This document shows, piece by piece, positions 1,191 through 58,157 of a stretch of DNA of 64,000 nt. Position 1 is the first letter of the stretch; every line of letters begins with the position of its first letter. Origin of the DNA: Acidobacteriota bacterium (lineage in GTDB: Bacteria > Actinomycetota > Acidimicrobiia > Spongiisociales > UBA5794); the NCBI GenBank assembly GCA_022562055.1, contig JADFQA010000009.1, forward strand, positions 17,255 to 81,254, read 5' to 3'. Below the pieces are notes generated by a model. It worked only from the letters and a program-made list of their open reading frames with translations, had not been told where the DNA came from and made no database searches. A program made the translations under genes and the position numbers.

Positions 1191-1196
1191 CAACTC

Positions 1197-1235
1197 CGTG
1201 AGGGCGGAGCGTCTCTTGTGCGCTCCGCCCTCACG
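1197..1235 (+). terminator. Perfect 15-bp stem-loop after the binding-protein gene (mRNA stabiliser or attenuator)
   Basis: CGTGAGGGCGGAGCG (1197-1211) pairs with CGCTCCGCCCTCACG (1221-1235) around a 9-nt loop. There is no U-tract. Confidence 0.75.
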
Positions 1236-1258
1236 TCTACCGAAACTCGGAGACAACT

Positions 1259-3835: not shown

Positions 3836-5006
3836 TTCTTCAAGACGCCCCCTCATCCAGTCGAGTATTGATCTGATCGGGCACTATCAAGCATCTACCG
3901 GTGCGTATCTGGCGGCTCCGGGGTACAGAACGTACGAGTACAGCTGGTTGCGCGATGGAGCCTTTATCGCCGCCGCCATGGATGCGCACGGCGAACCCGC
4001 TAGTGCTCGCGCGTTTCACACATGGGTAGCCGGCACCGTTGAACGCTACGCCTCGAAGGTTTTGGATCTGGAGGCGAATGTTGAGCTTGCCGTCAGCCGG
4101 ACCCCGGATCCGTTGGTTCCGCTCGACGGGAGGTACGTACTGCACACGCGGTTCACCGTTGATGGTGACGAGGCTGTCGGAGCATGGGGAAATTTCCAGC
4201 TCGATGGTTACGGATTTTGGCTGACCAGCGTTGTTCGCCATCTCGAAAAGACTGGGGCCGATCCGGCGCCCTTCATCAATGCGATCGACCTTGTATGTCG
4301 GTATCTCTCGATCACGTGGAAGCTTTCGTGTTACGACTGCTGGGAAGAGTTTCCGACACGCCACCACACGACGACGCTCGCGGCGGTTGCCGGAGGTTTA
4401 CAGCGGAGCGCAGGGTTGTTGCAAAACGATTCGGTGAACGCAGTAGCCGGTCTCATCACCGATCGACTGCGTGAGCGCGCCGGCGCAAGCGGTGTACTTC
4501 GGAAATTTGTCCATGATCGGGTTCCCGAGATTGCGAAAGTAGAAACGCCGGCGCCAGGTGCCGTTGCGGGGCACGAACGAGTCGGTAGGGTCCTTGGCGA
4601 AGGGGCGATCGATGGGAGCATCCTTCTCGTGCTCGGGGATTTTGGTCTAGACGGATCTGAGGTGGATATCAGGCGGCGCACTCTGGCGGCAGTCGAAGCG
4701 ACGTTGGTAGTGGAAAGTGGTGTCCATAGGTACCTTGAGGATGAGTACTACGGGGGAGGTCTGTGGATTGTCCTGGCCGGTGCCCTTGCGTGTGTGCAAG
4801 CAGAGCACCGCGTTGAACGAGCCAACGACATTCTGGACTGGATCGAGCATCAAGCCGACGGCGATGGTCACCTCAGTGAGCAGACGGACTCTCATCTTCG
4901 CCACCCAGATCAGCTTCCACCGTGGGTCGACCGGTGGGGTCCTCCGGCAACACCCCTGCTGTGGTCGCACGCCATGTACCTCTTGGGAGTCGCCAGCACA
5001 CAGTGA
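3825..5006 (+). CDS. GH15 glycoside hydrolase, isomaltose glucohydrolase-like
   Basis: Motifs YSWLRDG, FQLDGYG, YDCWEE, GVHRY..D.YYGGG, LSEQ and TPLLWSHAMY match Kfla1896 as I recall it. It overlaps the GH31 stop. Confidence 0.9.
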   Translation: MSLSSSRRPLIQSSIDLIGHYQASTGAYLAAPGYRTYEYSWLRDGAFIAAAMDAHGEPASARAFHTWVAGTVERYASKVLDLEANVELAVSRTPDPLVPLDGRYVLHTRFTVDGDEAVGAWGNFQLDGYGFWLTSVVRHLEKTGADPAPFINAIDLVCRYLSITWKLSCYDCWEEFPTRHHTTTLAAVAGGLQRSAGLLQNDSVNAVAGLITDRLRERAGASGVLRKFVHDRVPEIAKVETPAPGAVAGHERVGRVLGEGAIDGSILLVLGDFGLDGSEVDIRRRTLAAVEATLVVESGVHRYLEDEYYGGGLWIVLAGALACVQAEHRVERANDILDWIEHQADGDGHLSEQTDSHLRHPDQLPPWVDRWGPPATPLLWSHAMYLLGVASTQ

Positions 5007-5109
5007 CAATCCAGCTGCGTTCTCCAGATTGTACATTTGCACCGACCGAAAGCTACGCCAACAATCTGTGGCGTTGGCTCGTCCGTCGGACTTGGTGGGA
5101 GAGCGAACA

Positions 5110-5469
5110 ATGATATACCCCTTCAGTTTCACATTCTTCTTGACCGGTAGCACTGGCCTCCGTATCGGTGCGAACCGCCTGGAGGAGGCTTCCACCCAAT
5201 TGATGGACGCCATGCTTGTGCGCGAAACCGATGTCGTGTTCGACTCATCGGTGGGTGCGGTCCTCTCAACAGGCGAGGTCGATGTCGATGCGACGGTCAA
5301 GGCGCCGAACGAGGCTGTCGCCGCCACGATCGCCTGAGATTTCCTCATCGAGGCGATCAAGGCTGCCGGCGGTGTCGCTATGGGTATCTTCGTCTTCCCC
5401 GTAACTCACCCGCGCAAGACTCCAAGACAGGAGTGGCATGAGCGCCGGGCGGAGCTTACGACGGTCTAG
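5110..5469 (+). pseudogene. Hypothetical protein interrupted by an in-frame TGA at 5335-5337
   Basis: ATG at 5110 follows GGGAGAG. The frame continues past TGA as DFLIEAIKAAGG... to TAG at 5467-5469. No family recognised. Confidence 0.35.
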
Positions 5470-6058: not shown

Positions 6059-9000
6059 CTAGCTGCAACCCTTGGAGTCTCCACAGTTGAGACAGCGGTA
6101 ACACGAGCCGTTGCGGATGGTGATGTGTCCGCAGGTGTCACACAACGGGGCATCGCCCATCTTGTCTGCGAGCATTGCCTGCACCGCGGCGGTTTGCACA
6201 TCCGCCGCGGACAAGATCGGTTGGGCCTGCCTCAGGTCCACAGACTCGGTTATCACTGTTGATGTCGCCACCGAACCCGCTGGTGACATCGCTACTGCTG
6301 ACGTCGCTACGGCGGGAGCCGGCCCTCGGGACGAAGGCGGCGGTGCGGCATCCACAAACCTTGCGGCGGATACTTGCACTGCGATGTCGGCTTCCATCGC
6401 TGCGTCGTTGAGATCGAGTTGTGTGCCGGCTTCTACTGCGAGTCCCTTTGGTAGTTCCGCCAGGTCTCTTTCTGGCGGGACCTGGGCGAGATCGTCACGG
6501 TGCAGGTAGTCGATGCCGAGTGACCGGAACACATAGTCGATAATCGAGTTCGACATCTTGATATGTGGATGCCCTTCGACCATGCCCCGGGGTTCAAACG
6601 TCTGGAACGTGAACGTGTCGACAAACTCTTCGAGTGGGACTCCGTACTGAAGTCCCTTGCTCACCGCAATCGCAAAACACGACAGAATGCCGCGTAGCGT
6701 GGCACCTTCCTTTGCGAGATCGATAAAGATTTCACCAAGAGTTCCGTCCTCGTACTCGCCGGTGCGGACGAACAACTTGTGGCCACCGACACGTGCCTCT
6801 TGAGTGAAGCCGACACGGCGTCCAGGCAACAGGAATCGAGGCCGTGGCATGTTGGCGTACGCTTCGGTGGGGGACATTCCGTACGGCAGCGAACCGGTGA
6901 CGGCGAAGGTTGCCACAACATCGATCTCTGCTTCGAGGGCGTCGGTGAGTTCCTCGTCCTCCTCATCGGACATGCCCCCGTCGGATTTCGCCGAGAGTGG
7001 CTGCGACGCCTTTGACCCATCGCGGTACAACGCCATCGCCTTAAGACCAAGCTCCCACGACATCCGGTACGACTCCTGGATGTCTTCAAGTGTTGCTTCG
7101 TTTGGCAGGTTGATCGTCTTGGATATGGCACCTGAGATGAACGGTTGCGCGGCAGCCATCATCTTGATGTGACCCGAATGGTGGATAAACCGTTCGCCGT
7201 ACTTGCCGTTTCGGTTAGCGCAGTCGAACACCGCGAGATGCTCAGCAAGCAGGTGCGGCGCCCCTTCAATGGTTTGGCGTCCGCAGATGTAGTCGTTTGC
7301 TTCGATGATCTCAGCCTGTGTAAAGCCGAGCGCTTTGAGCATGTCGAAGCCGGCGCCGTTGTATTCCTCGGGCGTGAAACCAAGACGCTGCATCGTCTCA
7401 TCACCAAGTGACCACTGGTTAAACGCAAAACCGAGCTCAAACACACCGGGCAGCAACGCCTCGATCGTGTCGAGGTCCTTTGCAGTGAAACCTTTGGCTC
7501 GCAGAGTGGCAGTGTTGATATGCGGCGTGCCGTGCAGGCTCATCATGCCGATCACATAGTTGATGATCTCCTCATTGTGGCTTTCCGAATATCCGAGGGT
7601 CCGCAACGCTGGGGCAACGGACTGGTTCACGATCTTGAAGTAACCACCACCAGCCAGCTTCTTGAACTTCACAAGTGCAAAATCAGGTTCGATACCGGTT
7701 GTGTCGCAATCCATCAGCAACCCAATGGTGCCCGTCGGTGCGAGGACCGTTGCCTGGGCGTTGCGGTAGCCAAACTGTTCGCCAAGTTTTACCGCAATGT
7801 TCCACGCATTGTGGGCTTCGGCGAGGAGGTCATCCGGGCAGATGTCTTGGTCGATGGAAAGTACCTGATGGCTAATGCCTTCGTACTCTTCGATCGCTAC
7901 ACCGTACGCAGCGCGGCGATGATTGCGCATCACACGAAGCATCGCATCACGGTTCTCGTCATATTTCGGGAACGGCCCGACTACAGATGCCATCTCGGCG
8001 GATGTTGCGTAGGAATAACCGGTGAGGATTGCAGTGAGTGCGCCGGCAATGGAGCGGCCCTTTTCGGAATCGTACGGAATGCCCGAGCGCATCAGTATTG
8101 AACCGAGGTTTGCGTACCCGAGTCCGAGTGTGCGGTAATCGTACGATCCCTGGGCGATTTCCTTGGAAGGAAACTGCGCCATGGTGACCGAGATCTCGAG
8201 GACGATTGTCCAGATGCGGATCGCGTGCCGGTAACCCTCAAGGTCAAACGTTGCAGTGGCGGAGTCGTAGAAGCTGACAAGGTTGAGCGATGCGAGGTTG
8301 CATGCTGTGTTGTCGAGAAACATGTACTCGGCACACGGGTTCGACGCCCTAATCTCGCCGCCGGCGGGGGAGGTGTGCCACTCGTTGATGGTGGTGTGGA
8401 ACTGCACACCGGGGTCGGCGCACGCCCACGCCGCTTCGGCGATCCTGTCCCAGAGTCCACGTGCGCTCACGGTCCGCATCACAGAACCATCGGTGCGTGC
8501 GGTGAGGTCCCAGTCGCTATCGCTGAGAACCGCCTCAACAAACTCATTTGAAAGGCGGACTGAGTTGTTGGAGTTCTGACCCGAGACGGTGAGATAAGCC
8601 TCGCCGTTGAAGTCTGCCGGGTAACCGGCAGCGATCAATGCACGGACCTTGTCTTCTTCTTTGGCTTTCCAATCAATGAAAGTCTCGATATCGGGGTGGT
8701 CGATGTCGAGGATCACCATTTTGGCTGCGCGACGGGTCGTTCCACCGGATTTGATAGCCCCGGCGGCGCGGTCGCCAACCTTGAGGAAAGACATCAGACC
8801 GGACGATTTTCCACCGCCGGAGAGCCGTTCGCCTTCGCCGCGAATACTTGAAAAGTTGGTACCGGTGCCTGATCCAAACTTGAAGAGTCGAGCTTCACGG
8901 ACCCACAGGTCCATGATCCCGCCCTCGTTGATGAGGTCGTCTTTCACAGCTTGGATGAAACAGGCGTGTGGCGATGGACGGCTGTAGGAGTCTGGCGATT

Positions 9001-36711: not shown

Positions 36712-37212
36712 CTACAGGTCGGACTCTTTTTCGTACTTGTCTAGTGCAACGATGAACATGACGAACAGGATCAGCGATGCAACGGTGAGTCCGATGGCGG
36801 GGATACGAACCTCAATGGCGTTGAGACCCTGGACGCTTGAGGGTCGAATGCCTCGCGGTGCGTAAACGACGAAAAGCGTAGACCCGATGGTCAACCAGCC
36901 AAACAATGCTGCGCCAGACACGAGAAGGGCCAGGCGTTTCCCAAGATTGGTGTAGATCAGCGCAACGCCGCTGCCGATGAAGGCGAGCAGTGCCGATCCG
37001 GCGATCAACAATCCGCGGGCGGCGACAGAGAATCTGGTGAGCTCCCCGGTTTCGTCGATCTGTTTGAAAATGTTGGTGTATGCGTCTCCGAGAACGCCCC
37101 GTGCCGCCGGGATGAAGGCAGTGAACGCGACGACAATCGCAAAGACTCCGAGTTTTTCCAGACCTGATAGTCCGGACTCGTCACGATGGATGCGATGGAG
37201 TAGCGTTTTCAC
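36712..37212 (-). CDS. Membrane protein, last gene of the cytochrome bc operon, with a Flp-prepilin-like N-terminus
   Basis: GTG at 37212 overlaps the stop of the cytochrome c gene. RDESG|LSGLE followed by a hydrophobic helix and three further TM segments. Confidence 0.75.
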   Translation of the reverse strand: MKTLLHRIHRDESGLSGLEKLGVFAIVVAFTAFIPAARGVLGDAYTNIFKQIDETGELTRFSVAARGLLIAGSALLAFIGSGVALIYTNLGKRLALLVSGAALFGWLTIGSTLFVVYAPRGIRPSSVQGLNAIEVRIPAIGLTVASLILFVMFIVALDKYEKESDL

Positions 37213-38807
37213 ATCGAGTCCTCGTAGATGGCGATGAGTTCGATGTCTCGTTGGCTGAGCATCTTTCCGAAGGCTGGCATACGCCCGGTGCCAATTCCGT
37301 TGATCCCGTAGGACTGGCCGAATGTGGTGCCTTTGATGATGAGTTTCAGATGATCTTCGAACCGAACAAACTGCGAATCGGCTCTGCCATCGAGCAACGA
37401 CGGACCCCACGCTCCCGACCCCGCGGGTTGTTCGTATGCAACACCTGCGGAGTATCCACCGGTGTGGCAACGGGCGCAGTATGCGTTGTACAGGCCGACA
37501 GCCCGGGTTGCCTCGTCCAATGAAAGCCCGGTGTTCGCGCTGACCTCGCTGAAGTCCGTGAACCACTTTCGATCCTTGGCAGACTGGACGAGGAAGCCCA
37601 TGGACGTGTTGGCAGTCAGCAGGAACGCTTCATTGCGTTCGGTCATGACCTGAAGGTTGAGGTGGCGTGCGCCGACCAAGGTGAGAAACTCGTCTACCTC
37701 GTCAAGGTCGCTCTCGAGCATCCCCGAGGCGTCAGCCATCGAGAATGGGTTGTCGGTTTCGAGGGCGAGCAAGAGGGCTTCGGTCTCGACAAACGAGACG
37801 ACAAACTCTCCATCGACCTTCTTGACGAGTCGTGTTTGCATCTGCTCGAACGCCAATTCGGACATGTCGTTCAGCGTGGTCTCGGCTGCATCGGTAATGC
37901 CGTCGCGATCCGTGTCGACTCCAGACGTCCCACATACTCGGTCGACGAGAGCTGCGGATTTACTCGTGCACGTTCCGTCACCACCGAGCAGGGCGCTGAG
38001 CTGCTCCGGGAAGGTTTCGATCGGCTTAAACCGCGACGGAGCGTCGGCGATGTCGTCGATAACCGCTTGCTGGATGAGGATCAATTCGGCGACCTTTTCG
38101 TCACCCGTCTCGAGGCGCTTGATAGCGGAGTCAACTGCAGGCTCGATCTTGCGCAACACGTCGCCCTGGGTAACACCAAAGTCCTCAATGTAGGCCATGA
38201 CTTGAAGAACCTCTTGAAACGTCATGGCGCCACCGCCGGGTATGCCGTTCGCAGGCATCGGTGTTCCCTGGCGCCCGTGGTTGATGATCCCCGAGATTTC
38301 TTCCTCGTCGAAAAGGAAAAAGAGGTCGTTTAGCGAGGGGGCGCTCCACGAGGTGCTGAGTCCCGATCGGACCTCGACGAAGCTTGCCCCGCCGCCGACA
38401 CCATCCGCTCCGTGACAATCGATGCAGGAGAACTGGTTGAACCATCTCTCTCCCTCATCGATGTCTTTTTCGTGGATTGCTTCCGCAGCGCCGATCTGGC
38501 GGTCGGCTTCGTTGAGGTAGTAGATGGGTACGACCAGAGCTAACACGGCCGCGGCGACCATTGCCGAGCGCAACACAGTGTTGAGCTGGACGTTCTCGAG
38601 ATCGCCGTCAGACAGATATGGCTGGAGGTTCTTTGCGGGCTCTTCGCCGCCTGACTGGGGCCGGGCGGCAATCCACAGCCACGCAATCCACATCACGAAC
38701 ACCGCGGTGGCGACGATCAGAACTATCGAACCAATGCCGACGTTTGGTGGTCCCGTGCCGGTTGGACGCGCTTCGACGAAGAAATACAACGTTTGTAAGT
38801 CAATCAA
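37209..38807 (-). CDS. Membrane-anchored di-heme c-type cytochrome (QcrC-like) with a large inter-heme insertion
   Basis: CIDCH...GTPMP and CARCH...GRMP (His/Met ligation), two N-terminal TM helices. Confidence 0.9.
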   Translation of the reverse strand: MIDLQTLYFFVEARPTGTGPPNVGIGSIVLIVATAVFVMWIAWLWIAARPQSGGEEPAKNLQPYLSDGDLENVQLNTVLRSAMVAAAVLALVVPIYYLNEADRQIGAAEAIHEKDIDEGERWFNQFSCIDCHGADGVGGGASFVEVRSGLSTSWSAPSLNDLFFLFDEEEISGIINHGRQGTPMPANGIPGGGAMTFQEVLQVMAYIEDFGVTQGDVLRKIEPAVDSAIKRLETGDEKVAELILIQQAVIDDIADAPSRFKPIETFPEQLSALLGGDGTCTSKSAALVDRVCGTSGVDTDRDGITDAAETTLNDMSELAFEQMQTRLVKKVDGEFVVSFVETEALLLALETDNPFSMADASGMLESDLDEVDEFLTLVGARHLNLQVMTERNEAFLLTANTSMGFLVQSAKDRKWFTDFSEVSANTGLSLDEATRAVGLYNAYCARCHTGGYSAGVAYEQPAGSGAWGPSLLDGRADSQFVRFEDHLKLIIKGTTFGQSYGINGIGTGRMPAFGKMLSQRDIELIAIYEDSM

Positions 38808-39670
38808 TTGCAGGCCGGTCCTTGCGGGTAGGCGACGCTCTTGACTTTGGCACGCGAAGTCTCGAACACTGTGCCAGTATGGATGATGAGGTTGTTTTCC
38901 TCGTCGACCGTGACCATGAACCGGTCCATGTTGCGAGGCGCCGGACCTTCAATGTATTCGCCGTGCAAGTTGTACTTCGACCCGTGACATGGGCACTCGA
39001 ATCCCTGCGACGGCAGACACTCAGGTACTCGGCACCCTAGGTGAGGACACCGGTGCCAGATCGCCATGATGCCCGGTTCGGCACCGGCACCAACGATCAC
39101 GCTGTCCGCGATGTCGGCGAGAATCGACGCGGATACATCTCCACGGAATGGCACAATCCACGCTTGCGCGGCAGGGATAGGCTTCGGCTTGATCGTGCCA
39201 TCGGCCTGAATGACCTCCGTCCGGAGATCGTCGATGTTGCCGGCTGAGATCGGTGAGCCAAATCCGCCTTTGACTTTTGGCCAAAGAAACGCAAGGTACG
39301 CAAGGCCCTGTGTAGCGAGAAATGTGCCGAAGAAACCGAGGATGGCGCGGTTGAAAAACATCCGCCGGGTCGCACCGTAGTCCTCTTCGGATACCACCTC
39401 GCGCTCCGTAAGCGGATCGGCGATCGGCCCTGCATCCTCAACAGCTTCGGGGACGAGGACCTCGATCGAATCAGACTCAGCGCTAGGCGCGGAGAGCTTT
39501 CGCGCCTCGGCCTTACGAGCCCTGCGGTCCGCTTTTGCAGCGCGCCTGTCGAACGATCCTGTTATCGGTCCTGCGTCGGGGCCGCGTCCGACAGCGATGC
39601 TCGCAACAGCAGCGACAACGAGGACAGTTACGAGTCCAATACCGATAATGAAGGCGGTTTGAGCGTCCAT
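38804..39670 (-). CDS. Rieske 2Fe-2S subunit of a menaquinol:cytochrome c reductase (QcrA/PetC-like)
   Basis: CPHLGC and CPCHGSKY; TRRMFFNR Tat-like anchor. Confidence 0.95.
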   Translation of the reverse strand: MDAQTAFIIGIGLVTVLVVAAVASIAVGRGPDAGPITGSFDRRAAKADRRARKAEARKLSAPSAESDSIEVLVPEAVEDAGPIADPLTEREVVSEEDYGATRRMFFNRAILGFFGTFLATQGLAYLAFLWPKVKGGFGSPISAGNIDDLRTEVIQADGTIKPKPIPAAQAWIVPFRGDVSASILADIADSVIVGAGAEPGIMAIWHRCPHLGCRVPECLPSQGFECPCHGSKYNLHGEYIEGPAPRNMDRFMVTVDEENNLIIHTGTVFETSRAKVKSVAYPQGPACN

Positions 39671-40506
39671 CAGAAATCGAAGAATATCCCGTCTACCCAG
39701 GGGAATGTGAAGTTAAACCCTGGGCCTCGGAAAAACGAGCCGTACGTCGTGAGCACCGCGGCTCCCATGAAGAAGAATGAAAAGATCATGATTGCTAGCT
39801 TGCGGTCAGACGGCCGAACTGATGGATTGCGGTCAATGTAGGGAATGAATGCCAGCGCGGCCAAACCGTATCCAGGCAGGATAATGCCGGCAACCATTGG
39901 ATCGAAGTAAGACAGCAATTCCTGCAAGCCGAGGAAGTACCACGGCGCCTTGGACGGGTTCGGTTGCTGGTTGAAGTTCGCAAACTCGAGCAGCGGCGCA
40001 TCGACGTAGATCGAGAAAACGAACAGTCCTGCGGTGACGACCAGCAGTGCTACAAACTCGATGGCGACCAGGTGCGGCCAAGTGTTCACTTTGTCCGTTG
40101 GCTCCCGCTTTGTCTGCTGGATTGCGCCAGCCCGGACGACTGTCAGAAGCCGTTGTGTGCGGACACCTTCTGGAATGGTCGGCATGGGTGCAGGAGTGCC
40201 GGCAGCGACCGGCGCCGACGCGGTCTGCGCTGCTTGGGGGGCGCCGCTCGTCGTTGCCGCCACTGGGACGCCGGAGATTTTCGCTCTTGCCGTCATTGAG
40301 CGTTGGAGGAGATCCTCAGGGACACCGAGTTCCGCTGATTCTGTGGAGATATCGCGTGCCGCGCCCACGGCTTCCGCCGTACTAGCGGAGGACGATGGGG
40401 GCGCCTCGCCTTTCATTTCAGCGAGAATCTCATCGACCGGACGGCCTGTTGCTTTGGCTTTTGCCTCGGCCGAGCGACGAAGAAGGTGTTCTGGAAGTCC
40501 TGCCAT
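39670..40506 (-). CDS. Cytochrome b6 subunit IV / PetD-like, with a repeated N-terminal extension
   Basis: ATG at 40506. WPHL..IEF, NPSKAPWYFLGLQELL and PYIDRNP..RP..R; three TM helices. Confidence 0.9.
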   Translation of the reverse strand: MAGLPEHLLRRSAEAKAKATGRPVDEILAEMKGEAPPSSSASTAEAVGAARDISTESAELGVPEDLLQRSMTARAKISGVPVAATTSGAPQAAQTASAPVAAGTPAPMPTIPEGVRTQRLLTVVRAGAIQQTKREPTDKVNTWPHLVAIEFVALLVVTAGLFVFSIYVDAPLLEFANFNQQPNPSKAPWYFLGLQELLSYFDPMVAGIILPGYGLAALAFIPYIDRNPSVRPSDRKLAIMIFSFFFMGAAVLTTYGSFFRGPGFNFTFPWVDGIFFDF

Positions 40507-40514
40507 CGTATTCC

Positions 40515-41288
40515 CTAGAGCGGCCCTGAGATGCCGCCGTCCTTGCGGACTCGCCAGAAGTGCACGGACATGAAGATGACGATGATAAATGGTAAGAACA
40601 GGACATGCAGTACATACCACCGCAGCAGTGTGTCTGGTGTGATTTGTGTGCCACCGATCAGCGCAAAGCTCACTTGCTCGCCGATGACGGGAGCATAGCT
40701 GCCCATGTTTGAACCGACGGTCACCGCCCACACTGCAAGCTGATCCCACGGCAGCAAGTAGCCCGTGAAGGAGAGCAGCAGTGTAAGAAGCAACAGCACG
40801 ATACCGACAACCCAGTTGAACTCGCGTGGTGGTTTGTAGGCGCCGTGATAAAACACACGGGCCATGTGGAGGAACACGGTCAGCACCATTGCATGCGCGC
40901 CCCACCGGTGCATATTCCTCACAACCTGACCAAACGTAACGTCGGTCGCCAACGCCTGGATGTCGAGATACGCCTGCGGCGACGTTGGTCGGTAATAGAA
41001 CATCAAGAAGATGCCCGTAATGGTGAGCAGGATAAAGAGGAAGAAACTCAGCCCGCCAAGACACAACGTATACGACAATCGGACGCCGTGGCGCTTCACC
41101 TTCACCGGATGCAGGTGATACAAAACGTTGTTCATGATCACGTATGACCGGTTGCGAGGGGTGTCGGCGTAACCATCGCGGAACGGCGAGCCGGGACGAA
41201 AAATACTCGACCACGCTGCAGAAGACCTGACGTGTTGTCCGGTCTCGGCAAGTTTCGACATCAACCCGTTTTTGCTTTTGTCGCTCAC
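40515..41288 (-). CDS. Cytochrome b6-type N-terminal cytochrome b (PetB-like)
   Basis: CLGG (heme ci site), [26 protein letters not shown], and LHV...HFW with 14 residues between the His ligands. Confidence 0.95.
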
Positions 41289-41366
41289 CTACGCTCCTCG
41301 TCTACATTCTTGGTGCGGTGCCGTGGGCTGCCGCCGAGTGCCTTGCGCACTCGCGCACTCGCGTAC

Positions 41367-41810
41367 TTACCAACGGATGCCATACATGTACCCGTTCTTG
41401 AAATCGCGCTGCCCAGTGTCGTGCTCCCACGGCGTTGCTTCAAATCCGTCGGTTTTGTCGGCTACGGAACCGCTGAATTTTCCGAGGCTGATAACCCCCG
41501 TGGGGCAGCGATCGATGCACAGAGCGCACCGTGTGCAGACATCTTCGTCGACGATAAAGAATCCGCCGTTTTCCTTGTTCTCGTCCGGATGATCCACGTT
41601 GACACCTTCTGAAATGGCGTCAAGCGAAAGGAAGTGGATGCACTTCCACGGGCAAATGTCAACGCATCCCTCGCAGATAATGCATTCCGACTCGTCGATG
41701 TGGAGAAACGTTTTCGGTTTGACGGCCGCCACCAGGTATGCGCCGTCGACCAACGCGAGCTGGTAGTCGTCTCGGATCGGTGGGAGGTCTTGCCACACGT
41801 CATTCGCCAC
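41367..41810 (-). CDS. 2x[4Fe-4S] ferredoxin
   Basis: CIICEGCVDICP and CTRCALCIDRCP. Confidence 0.95.
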   Translation of the reverse strand: MANDVWQDLPPIRDDYQLALVDGAYLVAAVKPKTFLHIDESECIICEGCVDICPWKCIHFLSLDAISEGVNVDHPDENKENGGFFIVDEDVCTRCALCIDRCPTGVISLGKFSGSVADKTDGFEATPWEHDTGQRDFKNGYMYGIRW

Positions 41811-41813
41811 GGG

Positions 41814-42422
41814 CTACCGCTCCTGCTTGACAGTTGGCCTGCCGAACGCCGAAATCGGCGTTACGGGGTCTGATTCGATGCGGTTCTTTTCGTAGGTTTG
41901 CCACTTCACCATGGCGACTGGGATGCCGATCAGAAGGTTTCCCGTCATGCCGGCTACGAGGATCTCTTTGAGGACCTCGTACGAGATCGAAATATCGTTG
42001 TTGAGTGCCAGCACGCGTGGAATCGTGAACAAGGTTCTTTGCGATGACCAATCGAGATCGGTTTGGGCAATGGTCAATAGTTGGTTCGGGATTACGCCAA
42101 AGAGCAGCATCACCATGGATGTGAATACGAATGCCCCGATGGCTGCTCGCGCCCAAGTCAACTGTCGGCGGTACAAGAATGCCAGTGTTATTCCCCCAAG
42201 CAGCATGAATATCCCGGTTAGGGAGATGGTTTGTGCCAGTGTGCGAATGGGCAAACCGCGCGGGATCGAGGGGTACAGCTCGCGACCGACGGAGTCCGTT
42301 GCAGGGAGGCCTACGAAATGCGCAAGCACCGCACCGCCGATAGCAGTGAAAACCCCAAGGACCGCGACAGCGATACCGATTCGGTAGAACGTGCGCAGTT
42401 GCTTTTCGTCCAGGGCCTTCAC
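41814..42422 (-). CDS. Hypothetical membrane protein, first gene of the bc operon
   Basis: Three to four hydrophobic helices, 3 nt upstream of the ferredoxin gene. Confidence 0.75.
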   Translation of the reverse strand: MKALDEKQLRTFYRIGIAVAVLGVFTAIGGAVLAHFVGLPATDSVGRELYPSIPRGLPIRTLAQTISLTGIFMLLGGITLAFLYRRQLTWARAAIGAFVFTSMVMLLFGVIPNQLLTIAQTDLDWSSQRTLFTIPRVLALNNDISISYEVLKEILVAGMTGNLLIGIPVAMVKWQTYEKNRIESDPVTPISAFGRPTVKQER

Positions 42423-42650
42423 CTCGTTGTCCGTCTCGTGCGAGACGCCTCATCCTGTCAGTACCGTCTAGGTCGGTACGCGCATTCTACGCATGTGAAG
42501 TCGTCTGTGAAATCCATGCCCTTTTGACCATCGTCTCGAAGGATATGACAATGCACTGGGTGCGAGGTCTACTCAGAGGTCACGCGACTCAGATGCCGCA
42601 CTCGCAAAGACTAGGCTGGCGTGGCGAAGACCTACCCAGGTTGAGTATGT

Positions 42651-42722: not shown

Positions 42723-44687
42723 GTGACCGCCGATACCAGTCTTACCGATGACGCTTCTGCGTCCTCATCAGACGTACCCGACGCTTTCATAGATCACGCC
42801 AACGTGCGCGTGTTTGCAAAGCTTGCGGTGCTGTTTCTCGTCGTCTCCACAGTTCTCGGTTCCATCGCGGCTGTTTCTCTCGTGAATCCCACCGTTGCCG
42901 ATATCTCTAGGTTTCTCTCGTATGGCCGGTTGTACCCGGTGGCGACAAACTTGTTCATTAACGGTTGGTTGACTCTCGGGTTCCTCGCGGTCGTTATGTA
43001 TCTCGTGCCCAGACTGCTCAACAGATCTCTTGCAGCCGCTGGTTCCGCGGTAGTCGGCGCCGGACTGTATGCCGCTGGTGTCATCGCTGCGGCTGGGTTC
43101 GTCACGGTGCAAGGCGTTGACGGGAACGTCGGTTTTGAGGCGCCCTGGTATATCGACTTTGTCACCTTGATCGGCGTAATCCTGATTTCACGAGCCGTCG
43201 CGTTAACCGTCCGCAAGCGTCCGAAATCGGGCGACGGTGGCGCTGCACCTATTCCGCCGGTGGTGCTGTTTCTTACGGCAGGGGTCATTTGGTTGACCCT
43301 TGCGTTGGCAGTCGCACTGCCGTTTGGTGGTGGTCCGACGACTGGTCTTGGTGGGGTTCTCCAGAACATATTTGCCCGGGGCGCCATCGTGGGCCTGTGG
43401 TTAACGTCGGCGGGTTTTGGTGCCGTCTACTACATATCTCACCGCATCACCGGCGCCCCGAGCCGTGCCACTGACCGAAGCGTCTTGGCTGCCTTCTGGT
43501 CTGTCGCTGTCGTCATGCCGTTTTACGGGGCGACGCAATTGGCACACTCGGTCATGCCTGACTGGTTGGAGACGGTGGGGGCCATGTTTGCAATTGGTGC
43601 GCTATTGCCCGCGCTCATTCTAGCGAACGACCTCGCCAGGACAGTGCGATCGCGCATCGACAACGTGACCGATGCTGTCACGCTGAAGTGGCTTTCTTTC
43701 GGCACCGCTAGCTTCGTTGCTTTCATTGCACTCACGGTTCTCGGAACAATTCGTTCGGTTGCGGCAGTCGCGCAGTTGACGACGTGGACGTCGGGTATCG
43801 AGTTCCTCGCACTCGGCGGTGCCTTCACCGCTTGGTTGGTCGCCTTTTACCGGCACGCCGGTGTTGAGTTTTCGGGTAGACATGTCGACCGTGCAACTTC
43901 TGAGTGGCATCTCCGCCTTACCGTGCTCGGCGTGGTTGGTTTCGTTCTGGCTTCCATGTCCGCCGGCGTCGTTTCGGGATATGCCTGGATCGGCGCAGCG
44001 AATTCGCCCAACGTCGGAGTGACCGGCGTTGACTTTGCGCTGGCTTCGCAGCCGACGTTATTTGCGCTGGCCACCCGTGGCGCCTCCCTGGGCGTTTTCG
44101 CGTTAGGCGCTATCGTGTTCGCAGCGTCGCTGCTGGGTTCTGCGTCGCCGACCACTGACACGCCCGAGGTCGACTCCCTCGATGACGGTCGCTCCGTGCT
44201 CTCCGGCTCTCCGGTGGGATTCCCCAAGCTTGTCGGCGCCAGTGTCGGTCTGTTCATCGTGGCGATGTCGGTGGTGTGGCTCATTCCGTCGACCGAAGTG
44301 AACCCGACCGAAGGGACCATCCTTGGCGACACCACCAGAATGGAATCAGACGATGTGTTTGCGGCGGGTAAGGCCATCTATCTGCAAGAAGGATGTGTCT
44401 ACTGTCACACGCAGCAGGTCCGTCCAATTGTTACCGACGTCGATCTTGGCGCGGTGAGCGCGTACGGCGATTACGTGAACGAAGATGTTGTGCCCCTCGG
44501 TGTCGCCCGCCTCGGTCCCGATTTGATGCACGCCGGCACTGGCGAGGACACCGGGTCCGTTGTTTTCCTGCGTAGTTTTCTTGAAGATCCTCGGGCGGAG
44601 CGTTCTTGGTCCACAATGCCGAGCTATGCGCACCTCTCAGACGCTGAGATCGAAGCGCTTGCGATTTATCTGACCGGGCTTAAGTGA
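42723..44687 (+). CDS. Degenerate cbb3-type subunit I (CcoN-like, no heme/CuB His) fused to a CcoO-like cytochrome c
   Basis: CcoN-collinear segments SYGRLYPVATN, EAPWYID, YGATQLAHS.MPDWL and TTWTSGIEF. C-terminal GKAIYLQEGCVYCHTQQVRP, RLGPDL and STMPSY. Confidence 0.85.
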   Translation: MTADTSLTDDASASSSDVPDAFIDHANVRVFAKLAVLFLVVSTVLGSIAAVSLVNPTVADISRFLSYGRLYPVATNLFINGWLTLGFLAVVMYLVPRLLNRSLAAAGSAVVGAGLYAAGVIAAAGFVTVQGVDGNVGFEAPWYIDFVTLIGVILISRAVALTVRKRPKSGDGGAAPIPPVVLFLTAGVIWLTLALAVALPFGGGPTTGLGGVLQNIFARGAIVGLWLTSAGFGAVYYISHRITGAPSRATDRSVLAAFWSVAVVMPFYGATQLAHSVMPDWLETVGAMFAIGALLPALILANDLARTVRSRIDNVTDAVTLKWLSFGTASFVAFIALTVLGTIRSVAAVAQLTTWTSGIEFLALGGAFTAWLVAFYRHAGVEFSGRHVDRATSEWHLRLTVLGVVGFVLASMSAGVVSGYAWIGAANSPNVGVTGVDFALASQPTLFALATRGASLGVFALGAIVFAASLLGSASPTTDTPEVDSLDDGRSVLSGSPVGFPKLVGASVGLFIVAMSVVWLIPSTEVNPTEGTILGDTTRMESDDVFAAGKAIYLQEGCVYCHTQQVRPIVTDVDLGAVSAYGDYVNEDVVPLGVARLGPDLMHAGTGEDTGSVVFLRSFLEDPRAERSWSTMPSYAHLSDAEIEALAIYLTGLK

Positions 44688-44694
44688 GTTAAGA

Positions 44695-45540
44695 ATGGAC
44701 CAATCGCTCAACAAGATTTCGGACGAGTACGGCTACCCCGCTGACCTGGTTTCAAGAGCCGCCGCCGCGCGAGCCCAGGTGGAGGGAATCAGCCGCGAAG
44801 CCGTCGCCGCCCGCTGGGCGGGGGAAGAAGTGCCCGAAGGGGGAGCGGCACCTGCGGCCGCACCCGCAGCCGTCGCAACCACACAGGACGATGCCGCAAC
44901 TCCGGCCGGTCTTGATGTCGAAGTGCTCGAAGCCGTTGGGCACGATGAACCTGACCTGCCCGACTCGCCGTCTGTAGTAGATGAGCCAAGTCCGGTAGGC
45001 GGGTTCGTGAGATGGCTCGCCATTGTTGCGTTCATCATTCCTGTCATTGCTCTCACGTACGCCTTTGTCGCGCCCGATGGTCCGGCCTGCGGAGCAGCCG
45101 GTCAACTCGACGTCGATCCTGCGACTGGGAACGCGGTCGGGTGCGACGGCAAGGCCTACGGTGCCGGTGCCGTCAATTTCTTTGCGCTCGGCCAGGACGT
45201 GTACACCGCACAGTGCGTTGCGTGTCACGCTGCCGACGGCAGCGGCGGGGTTGGACCTGCATTCTTCGGTGGGTCAATCGTCGAGACGTTCCCGGCGAAT
45301 ATTTGTGCGGACCATCTTGAGTGGATCACGCTCGGGTCCTCTGGGTGGCAGAACGAGCGTGGTAATACGTACGGTGCCTCCGCCAAACCAGTGCTCGGAT
45401 TTTCCGGTGTGCCGATGCCAGGCTTTAGTAAGCTGACAGCCGACGAGCTTTCCGCGGTAGCTATATATCAACGTGTCGCATTTGGTGGCGAGGAAATCGC
45501 TATCGCAGAAGCTTCCTGCCTCGTCTCCGCAGCCAGTTAG
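44695..45540 (+). CDS. Membrane-anchored monoheme cytochrome c with a cytoplasmic N-terminal extension
   Basis: One TM helix, CVACH and GVPMPGF; four further Cys outside the heme motif. Confidence 0.9.
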   Translation: MDQSLNKISDEYGYPADLVSRAAAARAQVEGISREAVAARWAGEEVPEGGAAPAAAPAAVATTQDDAATPAGLDVEVLEAVGHDEPDLPDSPSVVDEPSPVGGFVRWLAIVAFIIPVIALTYAFVAPDGPACGAAGQLDVDPATGNAVGCDGKAYGAGAVNFFALGQDVYTAQCVACHAADGSGGVGPAFFGGSIVETFPANICADHLEWITLGSSGWQNERGNTYGASAKPVLGFSGVPMPGFSKLTADELSAVAIYQRVAFGGEEIAIAEASCLVSAAS

Positions 45541-45597: not shown

Positions 45598-46833
45598 ATG
45601 CCTTCTCTAGATGTTCTCGTAGTCGGTGGTGGACCCGGTGGCTGTGCGGCCGGATACTGGTTAGCCCGCCAGGGTGTTTCCGTAAGCGTCATCGAGAAGA
45701 AGACGTATCCGCGAGCAAAGACGTGCGGGGACGGTCTCACCCCGCGGGCGATCAAGCAGCTTATCGACATGGGGTTCGACTTCGACATCCCTGAGATTCA
45801 TAAGATCAAAGGACTCCGTGCATACGCCGGCGACCTGGTTCTTGAGATGCCGTGGCCTGAACGAACGACGTACCCGAACTGGGGTGCGTCGATACGCCGA
45901 GCCGACTTGGACGGTGCGGTTGCCGAGCTTGCTCGTAGTCAGGGCGCCGAGGTCCGAGAAGGCACGGAGGCAGTTGCAGTTATCGAGGACTGGAGACTGA
46001 TCGCCGTCGACCTCAAAACAGCCGACGGTTCTGTCGAACGAGTTTTTCCCAAGATTGTCATCATTGCTGATGGATCGTTGAGTCGTTTCGGCCGGGCGCT
46101 TGCGGTCCAGCGTCGCCGAGACTACCCGTACGCCCTCGCGGTCCGCACGTATTACCGATCGCCGTATTCGACGAATGAGTTCATCGAAAGCCAACTCGAT
46201 ATCCGCGACAAGGATGGTCGCTCTCTGCCCGGTTACGGGTGGGTGTTCCCGCTCGGTGACGGCACGATCAACGTCGGTGTCGGTGTGCTCTCGACGTTCA
46301 AGGGATGGAAAGAGGTCAACACTTCGCACATGCTCGAGTCGTATGTTGCTCGCCTGCCCGAGCATTGGCAGGTTTCGGAGAATGATGTCCTCCAGCCGCC
46401 GACTGGCGGCAAGCTGCCGATGGCGATGTCGGTCGGTCCGAAGGTTGGTGCCAACTGGCTCGTCATTGGCGATGCTGCCGGCGCGGTCAATCCGTTCAAC
46501 GGCGAAGGCATCGACTACGCATACGAGACAGGTCGCATGGCTGCTGATGTGATTGTCGAGGCGCTAGCTGCGAACGATCTTGCGTTGTTGCACCGATACT
46601 CGCAAGTACTCGACGACGAGTACGCCGCCTACTACAAGGTCGCGCGGATATTTGTCAACGTCATCGGTAATCCATCGGTGATGAAGGCGCTGACCCAGGT
46701 CGGGTTGCGGTCGCGCCCGCTCATGGAGTGGACGTTGAAGGTCATGGCGAACCTGCTCGAGCCCGAGGAGTACGGCATGTCAGAGCGCGTGTACAAAGCG
46801 ATCGAAAAGGTCGTCCGTTTCGTCCCCAAGTAG
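45598..46833 (+). CDS. Geranylgeranyl reductase family protein (MenJ-like menaquinone reductase)
   Basis: VVGGGPGG, KTCGDGLTPRA, GYGWVFP, GDAAG.VNPFNGEGI.YA.ETG; located near nuoA. Confidence 0.88.
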   Translation: MPSLDVLVVGGGPGGCAAGYWLARQGVSVSVIEKKTYPRAKTCGDGLTPRAIKQLIDMGFDFDIPEIHKIKGLRAYAGDLVLEMPWPERTTYPNWGASIRRADLDGAVAELARSQGAEVREGTEAVAVIEDWRLIAVDLKTADGSVERVFPKIVIIADGSLSRFGRALAVQRRRDYPYALAVRTYYRSPYSTNEFIESQLDIRDKDGRSLPGYGWVFPLGDGTINVGVGVLSTFKGWKEVNTSHMLESYVARLPEHWQVSENDVLQPPTGGKLPMAMSVGPKVGANWLVIGDAAGAVNPFNGEGIDYAYETGRMAADVIVEALAANDLALLHRYSQVLDDEYAAYYKVARIFVNVIGNPSVMKALTQVGLRSRPLMEWTLKVMANLLEPEEYGMSERVYKAIEKVVRFVPK

Positions 46834-56470: not shown

Positions 56471-57514
56471 GTGGACATCTTCGTCGAGGCCGCCGTCAAG
56501 GTCCTTGTCGCGTTTGCGCTGTTACTCAACGTTGTCGTGGTCATCGTGTGGATGGAACGCAAAGTTGTCGCCGCCATGCAAACCCGTATCGGACCGGATA
56601 GGGCAGGTCCGTGGGGCATGTTCCAGACCATTGCGGACGGTATCAAGCTGATGATGAAGGAGTCCTTGACGCCACGCAAGGTGCAGTTCGGCCTCTATAT
56701 TGCAGCACCAGTTATGGCCTTGGTGCCCGCGCTGCTGCTCTTCCTTGTCATTCCAATCGGAGCACCGTTCCAGTTCGGGGACAGGACCATCACTCTTGCC
56801 GTTACCGACCTCAACATCGGCATCCTCTATGTGCTTGCGATTTCTTCGATCGGCGTGTACGCGGTGGTCCTGGCGGGCTGGTCGTCGGGTTCGAAATACC
56901 CTCTGTTTGGTTCGGTGCGTGCCTCTGCGCAGATGATCTCCTACGAGGCGGCAATGGGACTCTCGCTTATCCCGGTCATTATCTTTGCAAGGTCAGCGTC
57001 GCTCACGGGCATTGTCACCGCACAGGGCGGTGACACTTTCGGGTTCCTCGGCACATGGAACATCGTGCTACTCCCCTCGTTCATCATCTTCTTCATATCC
57101 GGGGTCGCGGAGACGAACCGCCCTCCCTTCGATATGGTCGAGGCAGAATCCGAGATCGTCGGCGGTTACCACACTGAATACTCTGGATTCCGGTTTGCGC
57201 TCTTCTTCCTTGCAGAGTTCATGAACATGTTCACCATGTCAGCACTGACGATCACCCTGTTCTTCGGCGGGTGGATGGGACCGACCTTTGGGCTTCCCGA
57301 GCGAATCCATTGGGTCATCTACATTGCATGGTTCTTTGCAAAGACGTTCACCTTTGTATTCATCTTCATCTGGCTGCGCGCGGCACTGCCTCGAATGAGA
57401 TACGACCAGCTCATGGGCTTCGGGTGGAAGCGGCTGATCCCGGCCGCGCTGATGTGGTTGGCCACGTTCACCGTCGCCATTGGATACCGGACGTTTGGGC
57501 TCCCATGGTCTTGA
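56471..57514 (+). CDS. nuoH: NADH-quinone oxidoreductase subunit H
   Basis: [33 protein letters not shown] and RMRYDQLM. Confidence 0.97.
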
Positions 57515-57524
57515 AAGGTGCAAC

Positions 57525-58157
57525 ATGAGTCTGTTAGACACACTCGGCCTGGGCGGGTTCAAAGGCTTCCCAGTCACGTTCAAGCAGATGTTCACGAAGA
57601 AAGTTACGCGCAAATACCCGCAAGAAAAGCGCGAGAAGCCACCGCGCTTCCACGGGCGGCATGTGCTCAACAGGTACGAAGACGGCATGGAAAAATGCAT
57701 CGGATGTGAGTTGTGCGCCGGGGTCTGCCCTGCCCGATGCATATACGTGCGTGGTGCTGACAACCCACCGGAGGCACCGATTAGCCCCGGCGAACGGTAC
57801 GGATTCGTCTACGAGATCAACATGCTCCGCTGTATCTTCTGTGGCCTGTGTGTCGAGGCGTGCCCGACGACCGCGATCACCATGACCCAGCTCTTCGAAA
57901 TGTCTGTGACCGACCGTGACGATGCGATCTACACAAAGGACATACTCCTCGTCGAGCCGGACGGCACACCAAATCACACCCAACCAGCCGGCCCGCTCAT
58001 CGATCTGAACGAACTCAAACTTGCTGACGGGTGGATGCGTGCAACGTCGCCATCGGGCCGGGCCGCGTACGAGGGAATCCCGCAGTGGCCGGGCTCTGCC
58101 GGCGTCGGCGTACGTGCGCCTGAGCAGGGCCAACACCCACAGGACGGTGATGCGTAG
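57525..58157 (+). CDS. nuoI: NADH-quinone oxidoreductase subunit I, with a C-terminal extension
   Basis: [12 protein letters not shown] and [12 protein letters not shown]; ATG at 57525. Confidence 0.97.

Follow-up and report, generated by a model that had tools for sequence, protein, structure and literature searches.

Split cytochrome b complexes whose Qo motif reads APWY form a clade that was described in Deltaproteobacteria, Chloroflexi, Nitrospirales, Planctomycetes, some Actinobacteria including Ilumatobacter, and two deep Firmicutes; CxGG motifs were noted in this clade, and it was tied to mid- to high-potential Rieske signatures (Kao and Hunte 2014, PMC4122944). Dibrova et al. call the same clade subfamily G and describe its co-occurrence with iron-sulfur (FeS)/NAD(P) oxidoreductases in anammox bacteria (PMC5600118). 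In AlphaFold3 models of the Kuenenia complexes, a chain of FeS clusters leads from heme bN/cN to FAD; the Rieske potentials of anammox complexes were measured above +300 mV, and heme bP was argued to reach about −475 mV, which is enough for NAD(P)+ reduction (PMC12954380). For the cytochrome b6f complex, there is the long-standing idea that ferredoxin/FNR feeds electrons into the heme on the cytoplasmic (n) side (PMC5600118, PMC7908018). Hence, both a split b6 with a predicted heme ci in this lineage and n-side FeS modules on this clade were already known.

Here, we analyzed a stretch of 64,000 nucleotides (the window) from contig JADFQA010000009.1 of assembly GCA_022562055.1 (positions 17,255 to 81,254 of the forward strand), which contains a Rieske/cytochrome b6 operon. 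The assembly comprises 2.93 Mb and is 97% complete, the cytochrome b of the window is the only one in the genome, and relatives carry Acidimicrobiia labels. An earlier note on this DNA had pointed out a heme-ci attachment cysteine in the cytochrome b and a dicluster ferredoxin gene immediately upstream, and had proposed a ferredoxin:menaquinone route in a non-phototroph. Judged from sequence comparisons, the ferredoxin is a conserved, operon-embedded partner of the complex and not an accidental neighbor. The data suggest, without proving it, that a b6-type complex of respiration has an electron port on its cytoplasmic side that was not described before.

A ferredoxin gene ahead of cytochrome b6

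The gene at positions 41367 to 41810 of the minus strand, which encodes the entire operon, specifies a 2x[4Fe-4S] ferredoxin of 147 amino acids that matches Fer4 families and contains two CxxCxxCxxxCP motifs (C43 to C53 and C92 to C102). It ends 78 nucleotides upstream of the GTG start codon of cytochrome b6, and a scan found no terminator-like site on the minus strand in this gap. The dicluster ferredoxin claimed in the earlier note is thus present at the expected place.

A ferredoxin-led scan of genome contigs yielded, as its best 80 loci, sequences labelled nearly all as Acidimicrobiia or Actinomycetota; the few other labels, of metagenome-assembled genomes called Acidobacteriota or Gammaproteobacteria, are probably due to mis-binning. 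Cytochrome b6 directly follows the ferredoxin in 73 of the 74 loci that had enough downstream sequence, and in 76 of 77 loci the ferredoxin is itself directly preceded by a membrane-protein gene. Across the families of Acidimicrobiia, 20 loci contained the ferredoxin in 18 of 19 operons; this set includes eight loci that were chosen by the position of cytochrome b alone, seven of which carry the ferredoxin. In all 20 loci from Actinomycetota families outside the Acidimicrobiia, one of them from Euzebya pacifica (class Nitriliruptoria), the genes for a small membrane protein, the ferredoxin, b6, subunit IV and the Rieske protein follow one another in this order; sequence identity there is only 33 to 46% for the ferredoxin and 66 to 76% for b6. 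The adjacency of ferredoxin and petB, the frequency of which the earlier note had left to be checked, is therefore the rule.

The two genes also occur together in whole genomes. A sample of 401 genomes from the phylum contained both in 157 cases, b6 only in 6, the ferredoxin only in 1 and neither in 237. Among 301 genomes from the class, a strong match to the ferredoxin was combined with a cytochrome b of the b6 type in 253; neither was present in 34, b6 only in 11, of which at least 4 (probably 5) are contig edges, and the ferredoxin only in 3, all of them fragmented assemblies. QcrB-type genomes of the phylum sample lack the ferredoxin, as do families of Acidimicrobiia with another type of cytochrome b (E-values of about 1e-25 or 1e-75). 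Three genomes of one family (f6) and several of another (f20) have other cytochrome b types, in up to five copies, and no ferredoxin of this family. Within the class, sequence identity amounts to 50 to 88% for the ferredoxin, 25 to 48% for the membrane protein and about 30 to 57% for the Rieske protein and cytochrome c, so that only one protein of the operon is better conserved than the ferredoxin, and the ferredoxin gene is retained even in streamlined genomes of about 1 Mb.

The membrane protein encoded ahead of the ferredoxin (positions 41814 to 42422, minus strand) has 202 amino acids, four transmembrane helices predicted from hydropathy and a basic isoelectric point (pI) of 9.9, and is a candidate for anchoring the ferredoxin to the membrane or partnering it. 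It has no match in Pfam or NCBIfam. Its cytoplasmic C terminus carries a conserved S-x-(F/Y)-G-R-P tail, and the shorter equivalents in other classes end in GGY(K/R) or KGYxxGK. In the window, its TAG stop codon lies 3 nucleotides ahead of the GTG start codon of the ferredoxin. In 127 of 133 loci, the ferredoxin starts close to the end of a hydrophobic open reading frame (ORF), and in about 120 of the 133 the distance from stop to start is between −4 and +7 nucleotides, most commonly −1 (a one-base overlap). Such spacing is typical of proteins that are made in fixed proportion and, going by this arrangement, the two genes are translationally coupled.

The eight cluster cysteines and a ninth, Cys57, are invariant in 74 ferredoxin sequences; the ninth (CPWxC) is located four residues past the last cysteine of the first cluster motif, and an extra cysteine is also found, as CPxxCI, in related oxidoreductase domains. 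The ferredoxin is acidic (pI 4.4) and predicted to be soluble, without a transmembrane helix or signal peptide. Its N terminus bears a conserved extension, 37 residues are inserted between its two cluster motifs, and its C-terminal tail contains the motif HGYxYGxR(F/W). An AlphaFold2 (AF2) model built from the 74-sequence alignment has an overall predicted local distance difference test (pLDDT) score of 67, with 70 to 85 in the core and below 50 in the tail (residues 113 to 147); an earlier model from a 14-sequence alignment (pLDDT 44.7) was set aside. The C-terminal 35 residues are conserved within Acidimicrobiia and modelled at low confidence, as would be expected of a docking tail.

The family is narrow: searching its profile against 1.84 billion representative proteins retrieved only 32 clusters at E-values up to 1e-30 and 310, including many fragments, at up to 1e-10. 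Every family member whose locus was checked sits in such a bc operon, with the exception of a second copy in one genome (G293; L011, positions 6991 to 7404) that is identical in protein sequence, lies among unrelated genes far from the bc operon and is either a recent duplication or an assembly artifact. The operon of the most divergent full-length member (L138, positions 656 to 5271) consists of ccm genes followed by those for the small membrane protein, ferredoxin, b6, subunit IV, Rieske protein and diheme cytochrome c. The maturation genes that precede it encode the System I proteins CcmABCEF, and in other classes ResA-like and CcsA-like genes lie upstream. Seven apparent fusions of membrane protein and ferredoxin among the representative proteins were not used because they look like frameshifted assemblies. 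Public databases list the family under generic or wrong names (4Fe-4S binding protein, NuoI, PreA or hypothetical protein). An identification as NuoI was ruled out, as the ferredoxin scored 38.8 bits against a cut-off of 113 bits and the genuine NuoI is encoded in the nuo operon (positions 57480 to 58157; 206 bits).

The closest relatives outside the family are the C-terminal dicluster domains of oxidoreductases of 550 to 615 amino acids with the architecture Fer4_20, Pyr_redox_2 and Fer4, a layout also seen in the putative NAD(P) oxidoreductases of the Kuenenia complexes. The ferredoxin aligned with this domain over 99 columns in hhalign (probability 99.6%, E-value 2e-23) and with 35% identity over 82 residues in BLASTP, and both have a long insertion separating the two cluster motifs and the additional cysteine of CPxxCI. 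All three full-length top matches with other bc-operon genes in their neighborhood lie in Rieske/cytochrome b operons. Three other relatives of this type are not located beside cytochrome b genes, and the architecture is therefore not exclusive to bc operons. In one of the Rieske/cytochrome b operons, a fused long cytochrome b (L141, positions 2959 to 4548) accompanies two NAD(P) oxidoreductase-ferredoxin genes. A phmmer search of the PDB with the ferredoxin returned only polyferredoxins and generic Fer4 proteins.

Heme-ci hallmarks and operon layout

Cytochrome b6 (257 amino acids, positions 40515 to 41288, minus strand, PF00033) starts with a GTG codon preceded by a GAGGAG ribosome-binding site. 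A phmmer search of the PDB aligned residues 73 to 257 with residues 32 to 215 of b6 in the structures 1VF5, 2ZT9 and 6RQF (E-value 5.6e-48). In this alignment Cys76 (codon at 41061 to 41063), which sits in the sequence SYTLCLGG, falls on Cys35 (IFYCLGG) of the solved b6f structures, and a ten-residue segment at the C terminus falls on RKQ-GISGPL. Cys35 of b6, at the n-side start of helix A, is the residue that carries heme cn/ci. Cys76 is the only cysteine of the protein and is invariant in 134 of 134 relatives, and it is the predicted attachment site of heme ci, as the earlier note had proposed for the cysteine of its YTLCLGG motif. Two further hallmarks named there were also recovered. The heme-ligating histidines H127/H141 and H228/H243 are separated by 13 residues (helix B) and 14 residues (helix D), the spacing of b6-type proteins, and the cytochrome b is split, with PF00032 matching the next ORF, which encodes subunit IV (278 amino acids, positions 39670 to 40506, minus strand).

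Both proteins have cytoplasmic N-terminal extensions. That of b6 (about 50 to 70 residues; the first 72 residues have a pI of 10.7) is basic, highly conserved and runs directly into Cys76, and it bears the motif W-x-SIFRPGS-x-FR-x-GY-x-D-x-PRNR, which reads FRKGY-x-DSPRNR in the window. Because the ExtP model NF040969 covers residues 51 to 254 only, residues 1 to 50 are lineage specific. The cytochrome b of locus L141 starts with W-R-SIFRHG...HLHPV, the same W-x-SIFR-x-G extension, and carries APWY; since the extension is found there and is absent from ExtP, which has no FeS partner, it tracks the presence of an FeS partner across the three systems.

In subunit IV, the extension comprises 140 residues; the motif PE(H/D)LL-x-RS-x-x-x-(R)AK recurs in it, and its linkers are rich in alanine and proline. 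Only its first 33 to 40 or so residues are conserved in relatives (tblastn). The core contains the Qo motif APWY and a WPH...EF motif, of which APWY, the histidine and the glutamate are invariant in 122 of 122 sequences and the phenylalanine mostly so. In a weak alignment (E-value 0.38), the glutamate and phenylalanine correspond to positions 39 and 40 of Chlamydomonas subunit IV. Phe40 faces the open axial side of heme ci in b6f, and low-potential forms have a glutamate there. CCB1 (PF12046) was not found in the genome, and it was also missing in a Bacillus subtilis control. Because B. subtilis, which carries a covalently attached heme ci (PMC4122944), lacks it as well, CCB1 is not a defining property outside oxygenic phototrophs.

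Transcription would proceed from the membrane protein through the ferredoxin, b6 and subunit IV to the Rieske protein (288 amino acids, positions 38804 to 39670, PF00355), a membrane-anchored diheme cytochrome c (532 amino acids, positions 37209 to 38807, with two stretches matching PF13442 and PF00034) and another membrane protein (positions 36712 to 37212), all on the minus strand. The Rieske protein reads CPHLGCRV ... CPCHGSKY, and the serine and tyrosine of this S-Y signature are invariant in 107 of 107 sequences. The synteny of the diheme cytochrome c is kept within the class and the phylum. The downstream membrane protein matches no family and is syntenic in Acidimicrobiia; its ORF was called as 36712 to 37566 and its true start is uncertain, the 5' part of the called ORF overlapping the cytochrome c gene. 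A consensus scan placed a promoter-like site (TTCACA-16-TAGAAT, 10 of 12 positions, at 42484 to 42511, minus strand) upstream of the membrane-protein gene, which suggests that the operon starts with this gene, although a consensus match is not evidence of function.

On the divergent side, from position 42723, the plus strand encodes a CcoNO-like protein that resembles a CcoN-CcoO fusion and a cytochrome c (together 42723 to 45540), followed by a member of the geranylgeranyl reductase family (45598 to 46833) whose top NCBIfam match is the menaquinone reductase MenJ, at 295 bits against an equivalog cut-off of 700. The divergent pairing of the CcoNO-like gene with the bc operon is kept in most order-level relatives and not in remoter Acidimicrobiia or other classes, and a MenJ-like gene is found near the bc operon in most Acidimicrobiia loci. 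Menaquinone is the likely quinone, given the MenJ-like gene and the actinobacterial descent.

Proposed role and alternatives

The ferredoxin is, in our judgment, very probably a dedicated component of complex III. As the best explanation of the data, in which we place slightly better than even confidence, we propose that it is the n-side FeS subunit, or a tightly bound partner, of the only Rieske/cytochrome b6 complex of the cell and passes electrons inward to menaquinone. It would be made in step with the small membrane protein through translational coupling, and the acidic protein (pI 4.4) probably docks on the basic N-terminal extension of b6 (pI 10.7) that leads to Cys76. Its two [4Fe-4S] clusters would then exchange electrons between low-potential carriers in the cytoplasm and the heme bH/heme ci/Qi end of the complex. 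Binding itself, the place of docking, any transfer of electrons and the direction of that transfer are all inferred. If the flow is inward, reduced ferredoxin would reduce menaquinone at Qi, adding a ferredoxin:menaquinone branch to a normal Q cycle; we regard this direction as somewhat short of an even bet. Four matches to POR-family 2-oxoacid:ferredoxin oxidoreductases in the genome imply that reduced ferredoxin is produced, and at least one related order runs its tricarboxylic acid (TCA) cycle on 2-oxoglutarate:ferredoxin oxidoreductase (PMC12008989). In view of both, a route from ferredoxin to menaquinone would be useful, and the one suggested in the earlier note is plausible.

Several observations weigh against this reading. 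The ferredoxin was lost cleanly at least twice, in one genome (G198) and in several genera of one family (f92), while the membrane anchor, the cysteine and the rest of the operon were kept, and it is therefore dispensable for the core Q cycle. The ferredoxin-less genomes keep two to three POR-family genes, and a phyletic test showed no link between the loss of the ferredoxin and the loss of POR-family genes; moreover, the window genome also encodes a 2-oxoglutarate dehydrogenase E1. The cytochrome b of locus L141 has WGLGG instead of CxGG and thus lacks the heme-ci cysteine, which means that an FeS partner does not require heme ci. A Foldseek search of the PDB with the AF2 model gave only generic ferredoxin-like matches (FwdF, PscB and NdhI/NuoI; E-values of 3e-3 or higher). 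Finally, an S-Y Rieske protein in a lineage that would use menaquinone fits an outward, bifurcating flow at least as well. In the five loci that represent these natural losses (L019 and L134 to L137), the membrane-protein gene is directly followed by b6. The FRKGY segment of the b6 extension is relaxed to IYRxGY, IYRGDH or PMRVDN in the ferredoxin-less lineages, a suggestive change that would represent two or three independent events.

Bifurcation would use the same architecture with the opposite flow: menaquinol is split at Qo, one electron going to the Rieske protein and cytochrome c and the other through the b hemes to the ferredoxin, so that an aerobe would make a low-potential reductant by a pared-down, flavin-free variant of what was proposed for anammox. 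We consider such an electron output rather unlikely but a serious rival reading. It draws on the invariance of APWY and of the S-Y signature, both of which are tied to a mid- or high-potential Rieske protein (PMC4122944), on the indications for menaquinone, on the anammox potentials and n-side FeS chain (PMC12954380), and on the homology of the ferredoxin to the C-terminal FeS domain of the anammox-class oxidoreductase. However, the Rieske potential is inferred here from a two-residue signature alone, in some lineages the complex functions in the absence of the ferredoxin, and the features of the Qi side, namely, the heme-ci cysteine and the glutamate and histidine of WPH...EF in subunit IV, are fully conserved, arguing that quinone reduction at Qi persists.

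It appears improbable that no electrons flow through the ferredoxin. One form of this, which we rate as more improbable still, is that the ferredoxin and the membrane protein are accessories for assembly, maturation or redox sensing without a steady-state electron flux, for example, by keeping Cys76 and the heme iron reduced for thioether formation or by gating activity according to oxygen or redox state. The genes do come first in the operon and are coupled, they have ResA-like, CcsA-like or Ccm maturation genes just upstream in other lineages, and without a CCB1 homologue the attachment of heme ci needs other machinery. Yet the lack of CCB1 says little, given that B. subtilis attaches the heme without it, and while the loss of the ferredoxin in some lineages would suit an accessory, the CxGG cysteine is unchanged in these lineages, which is hard to square with a required maturation factor. 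A catalytic subunit accords better with such strong conservation and with the kinship to an electron-wire domain of oxidoreductases. An ordinary soluble ferredoxin or NuoI paralogue that lies next to petB by chance is highly improbable and has largely been refuted by synteny: the Fer4 matches are generic, NuoI is the best NCBIfam match and one genome has the identical copy away from bc genes, but the score is far below the NuoI cut-off, the nuo operon has its own NuoI, and gene order and co-occurrence are conserved over phylum-level divergence in a family confined to these operons.

If the ferredoxin is an n-side partner of complex III, the locus bears on a question that reaches beyond this lineage. 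Direct electron exchange between ferredoxin and the n-side heme of b6f-type complexes, the ferredoxin:quinone reductase problem in cyclic electron flow, has been debated for decades in photosynthesis. What the FeS/flavin module of anammox bacteria does is also still only modelled. Here, a comparable b6 is genetically tied to a minimal FeS partner in aerobic, nonphotosynthetic bacteria, and with cultured hosts such as Euzebya pacifica and, according to PMC4122944, Ilumatobacter, the question becomes directly testable with photosystems out of the way. In the literature searched, which did not extend to the supplementary operon schemes of PMC5600118 and PMC4122944, we found no description of a free-standing ferredoxin and small membrane protein as phylum-wide components of an aerobic complex III. 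The most far-reaching version, that complex III of deep-branching Actinomycetota is an electron-bifurcating menaquinol:cytochrome c/ferredoxin oxidoreductase, is unlikely in our estimate. If true, the high-potential Rieske branch would pay for reducing a bound 2x[4Fe-4S] ferredoxin at the heme bH/ci end, giving aerobes a respiratory source of low-potential reductant by a minimal, flavin-free form of a mechanism so far proposed for anammox bacteria only. The lineages concerned are the Acidimicrobiia, the Nitriliruptoria and their allies, some of which are abundant in the sea and in soil. Annotation is affected in practice, too: thousands of genomes from Acidimicrobiia and related groups carry the gene under the generic or wrong names given above and the cytochrome b may be mislabelled as ExtP.

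Comparison with known complexes

Based on its motifs and model scores, the complex is a member of the APWY clade (subfamily G), which comprises Geobacter ExtP-like proteins and also holds the anammox Rieske/cytochrome b complexes. The kinship with b6f and with the b6c complexes of Bacillus and heliobacteria that the earlier note saw in the locus holds for the heme-ci hallmarks and not for the clade, for which APWY, the S-Y Rieske protein and the ExtP score are telling. Cytochrome b6 scored 304.9 bits against NF040969, the NCBIfam equivalog for ExtP as b-type cytochrome of a selenite/tellurite reduction operon, above the cut-off of 290 bits, and subunit IV matched the ExtQ model with 59 bits, below the cut-off of 150 bits. 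This likeness to Geobacter ExtOPQ and Cbc6 (CbcMNOPQR) does not extend to the surroundings. The ext cluster encodes a porin, a rhodanese and cytochromes with 4 to 12 hemes and no ferredoxin or other FeS partner (PMC5877670); none of these ext-type neighbors is present at the window operon, and the ExtP model lacks the 50-residue N-terminal extension. The idea that ExtM/CbcM might be an FeS protein was dropped, as the paper shows it to be a 12-heme cytochrome. Automated annotation may mislabel the b6 of the window, where ext cluster genes are missing, and because its neighbors are genes for a ferredoxin, a Rieske protein, a diheme cytochrome c and a CcoNO-like protein, the name ExtP should not be transferred.

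The QcrCAB complex of actinomycetes (CIII2CIV2 of Mycobacterium and Corynebacterium) shares with the window complex the phylum, menaquinol and a diheme cytochrome c partner. However, QcrB is a long, unsplit cytochrome b that matches the window b6 with E-values of only about 1e-22 to 1e-32, and it has neither the CxGG cysteine nor a ferredoxin. With PsaC/PscB and NuoI/NdhI, which are among the top fold matches, the ferredoxin has in common the 2x[4Fe-4S] fold, the long insert and, as proposed here, a docking position on the n-side; the structural match is weak (E-value of about 3e-3, TM-score of about 0.35), the sequence match is below threshold and the resemblance is generic.

More is shared with the b6c complexes of Firmicutes and heliobacteria (QcrABC and PetCBDX), namely, the presumed oxidation of menaquinol by a complex that is non-photosynthetic or anoxygenic, the split b6/subunit IV and a covalent heme ci, which is predicted here. 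A glutamate-ligated, low-potential heme ci was reported for this group (PMC4122944, PMC12954380). The b6c complexes have PDWY or PEWY, low-potential Rieske signatures, YC(F/L)GG and no ferredoxin gene, whereas the window complex has APWY, the S-Y Rieske protein and LCLGG. Cytochrome b6f of cyanobacteria and chloroplasts (PetB/PetD, heme cn) provides the best match among solved structures, with Cys35, the b6 histidine spacing, the GISGPL C terminus and the split b; the window differs from it by lacking cytochrome f, the small Pet subunits, CCB1 and a photosystem, by having APWY instead of PEWY, by a glutamate that would lie beside the Phe40 position of subunit IV, by the likely use of menaquinone, and by the ferredoxin encoded in the operon.

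The closest parallels are the anammox complexes Kuste4569-4574 and Kustd1480-1485 of Kuenenia stuttgartiensis (subfamily G/G'), which belong to the same cytochrome b clade by their motifs: APWY, CxGG (in the short forms), a putative Glu/His pair near heme cN and a Rieske protein of the high-potential type (PMC12954380, PMC5600118). In both cases, the operon encodes an extra n-side FeS protein, and the oxidoreductase class found in anammox bacteria has a C-terminal dicluster domain to which the ferredoxin is homologous, a likeness drawn from motifs, domain architecture and the oxidoreductase relatives. The window differs in having a free-standing dicluster protein of 15 kDa together with a small membrane protein. 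Since Fer4_20, FAD and NAD(P) domains are all missing from this protein, it is unable to produce NAD(P)H on its own. On the p-side, the partner is a diheme cytochrome c here and a multiheme or HAO-like protein in anammox bacteria and, unlike these, the hosts of the complex described here are aerobic, heterotrophic Actinomycetota.

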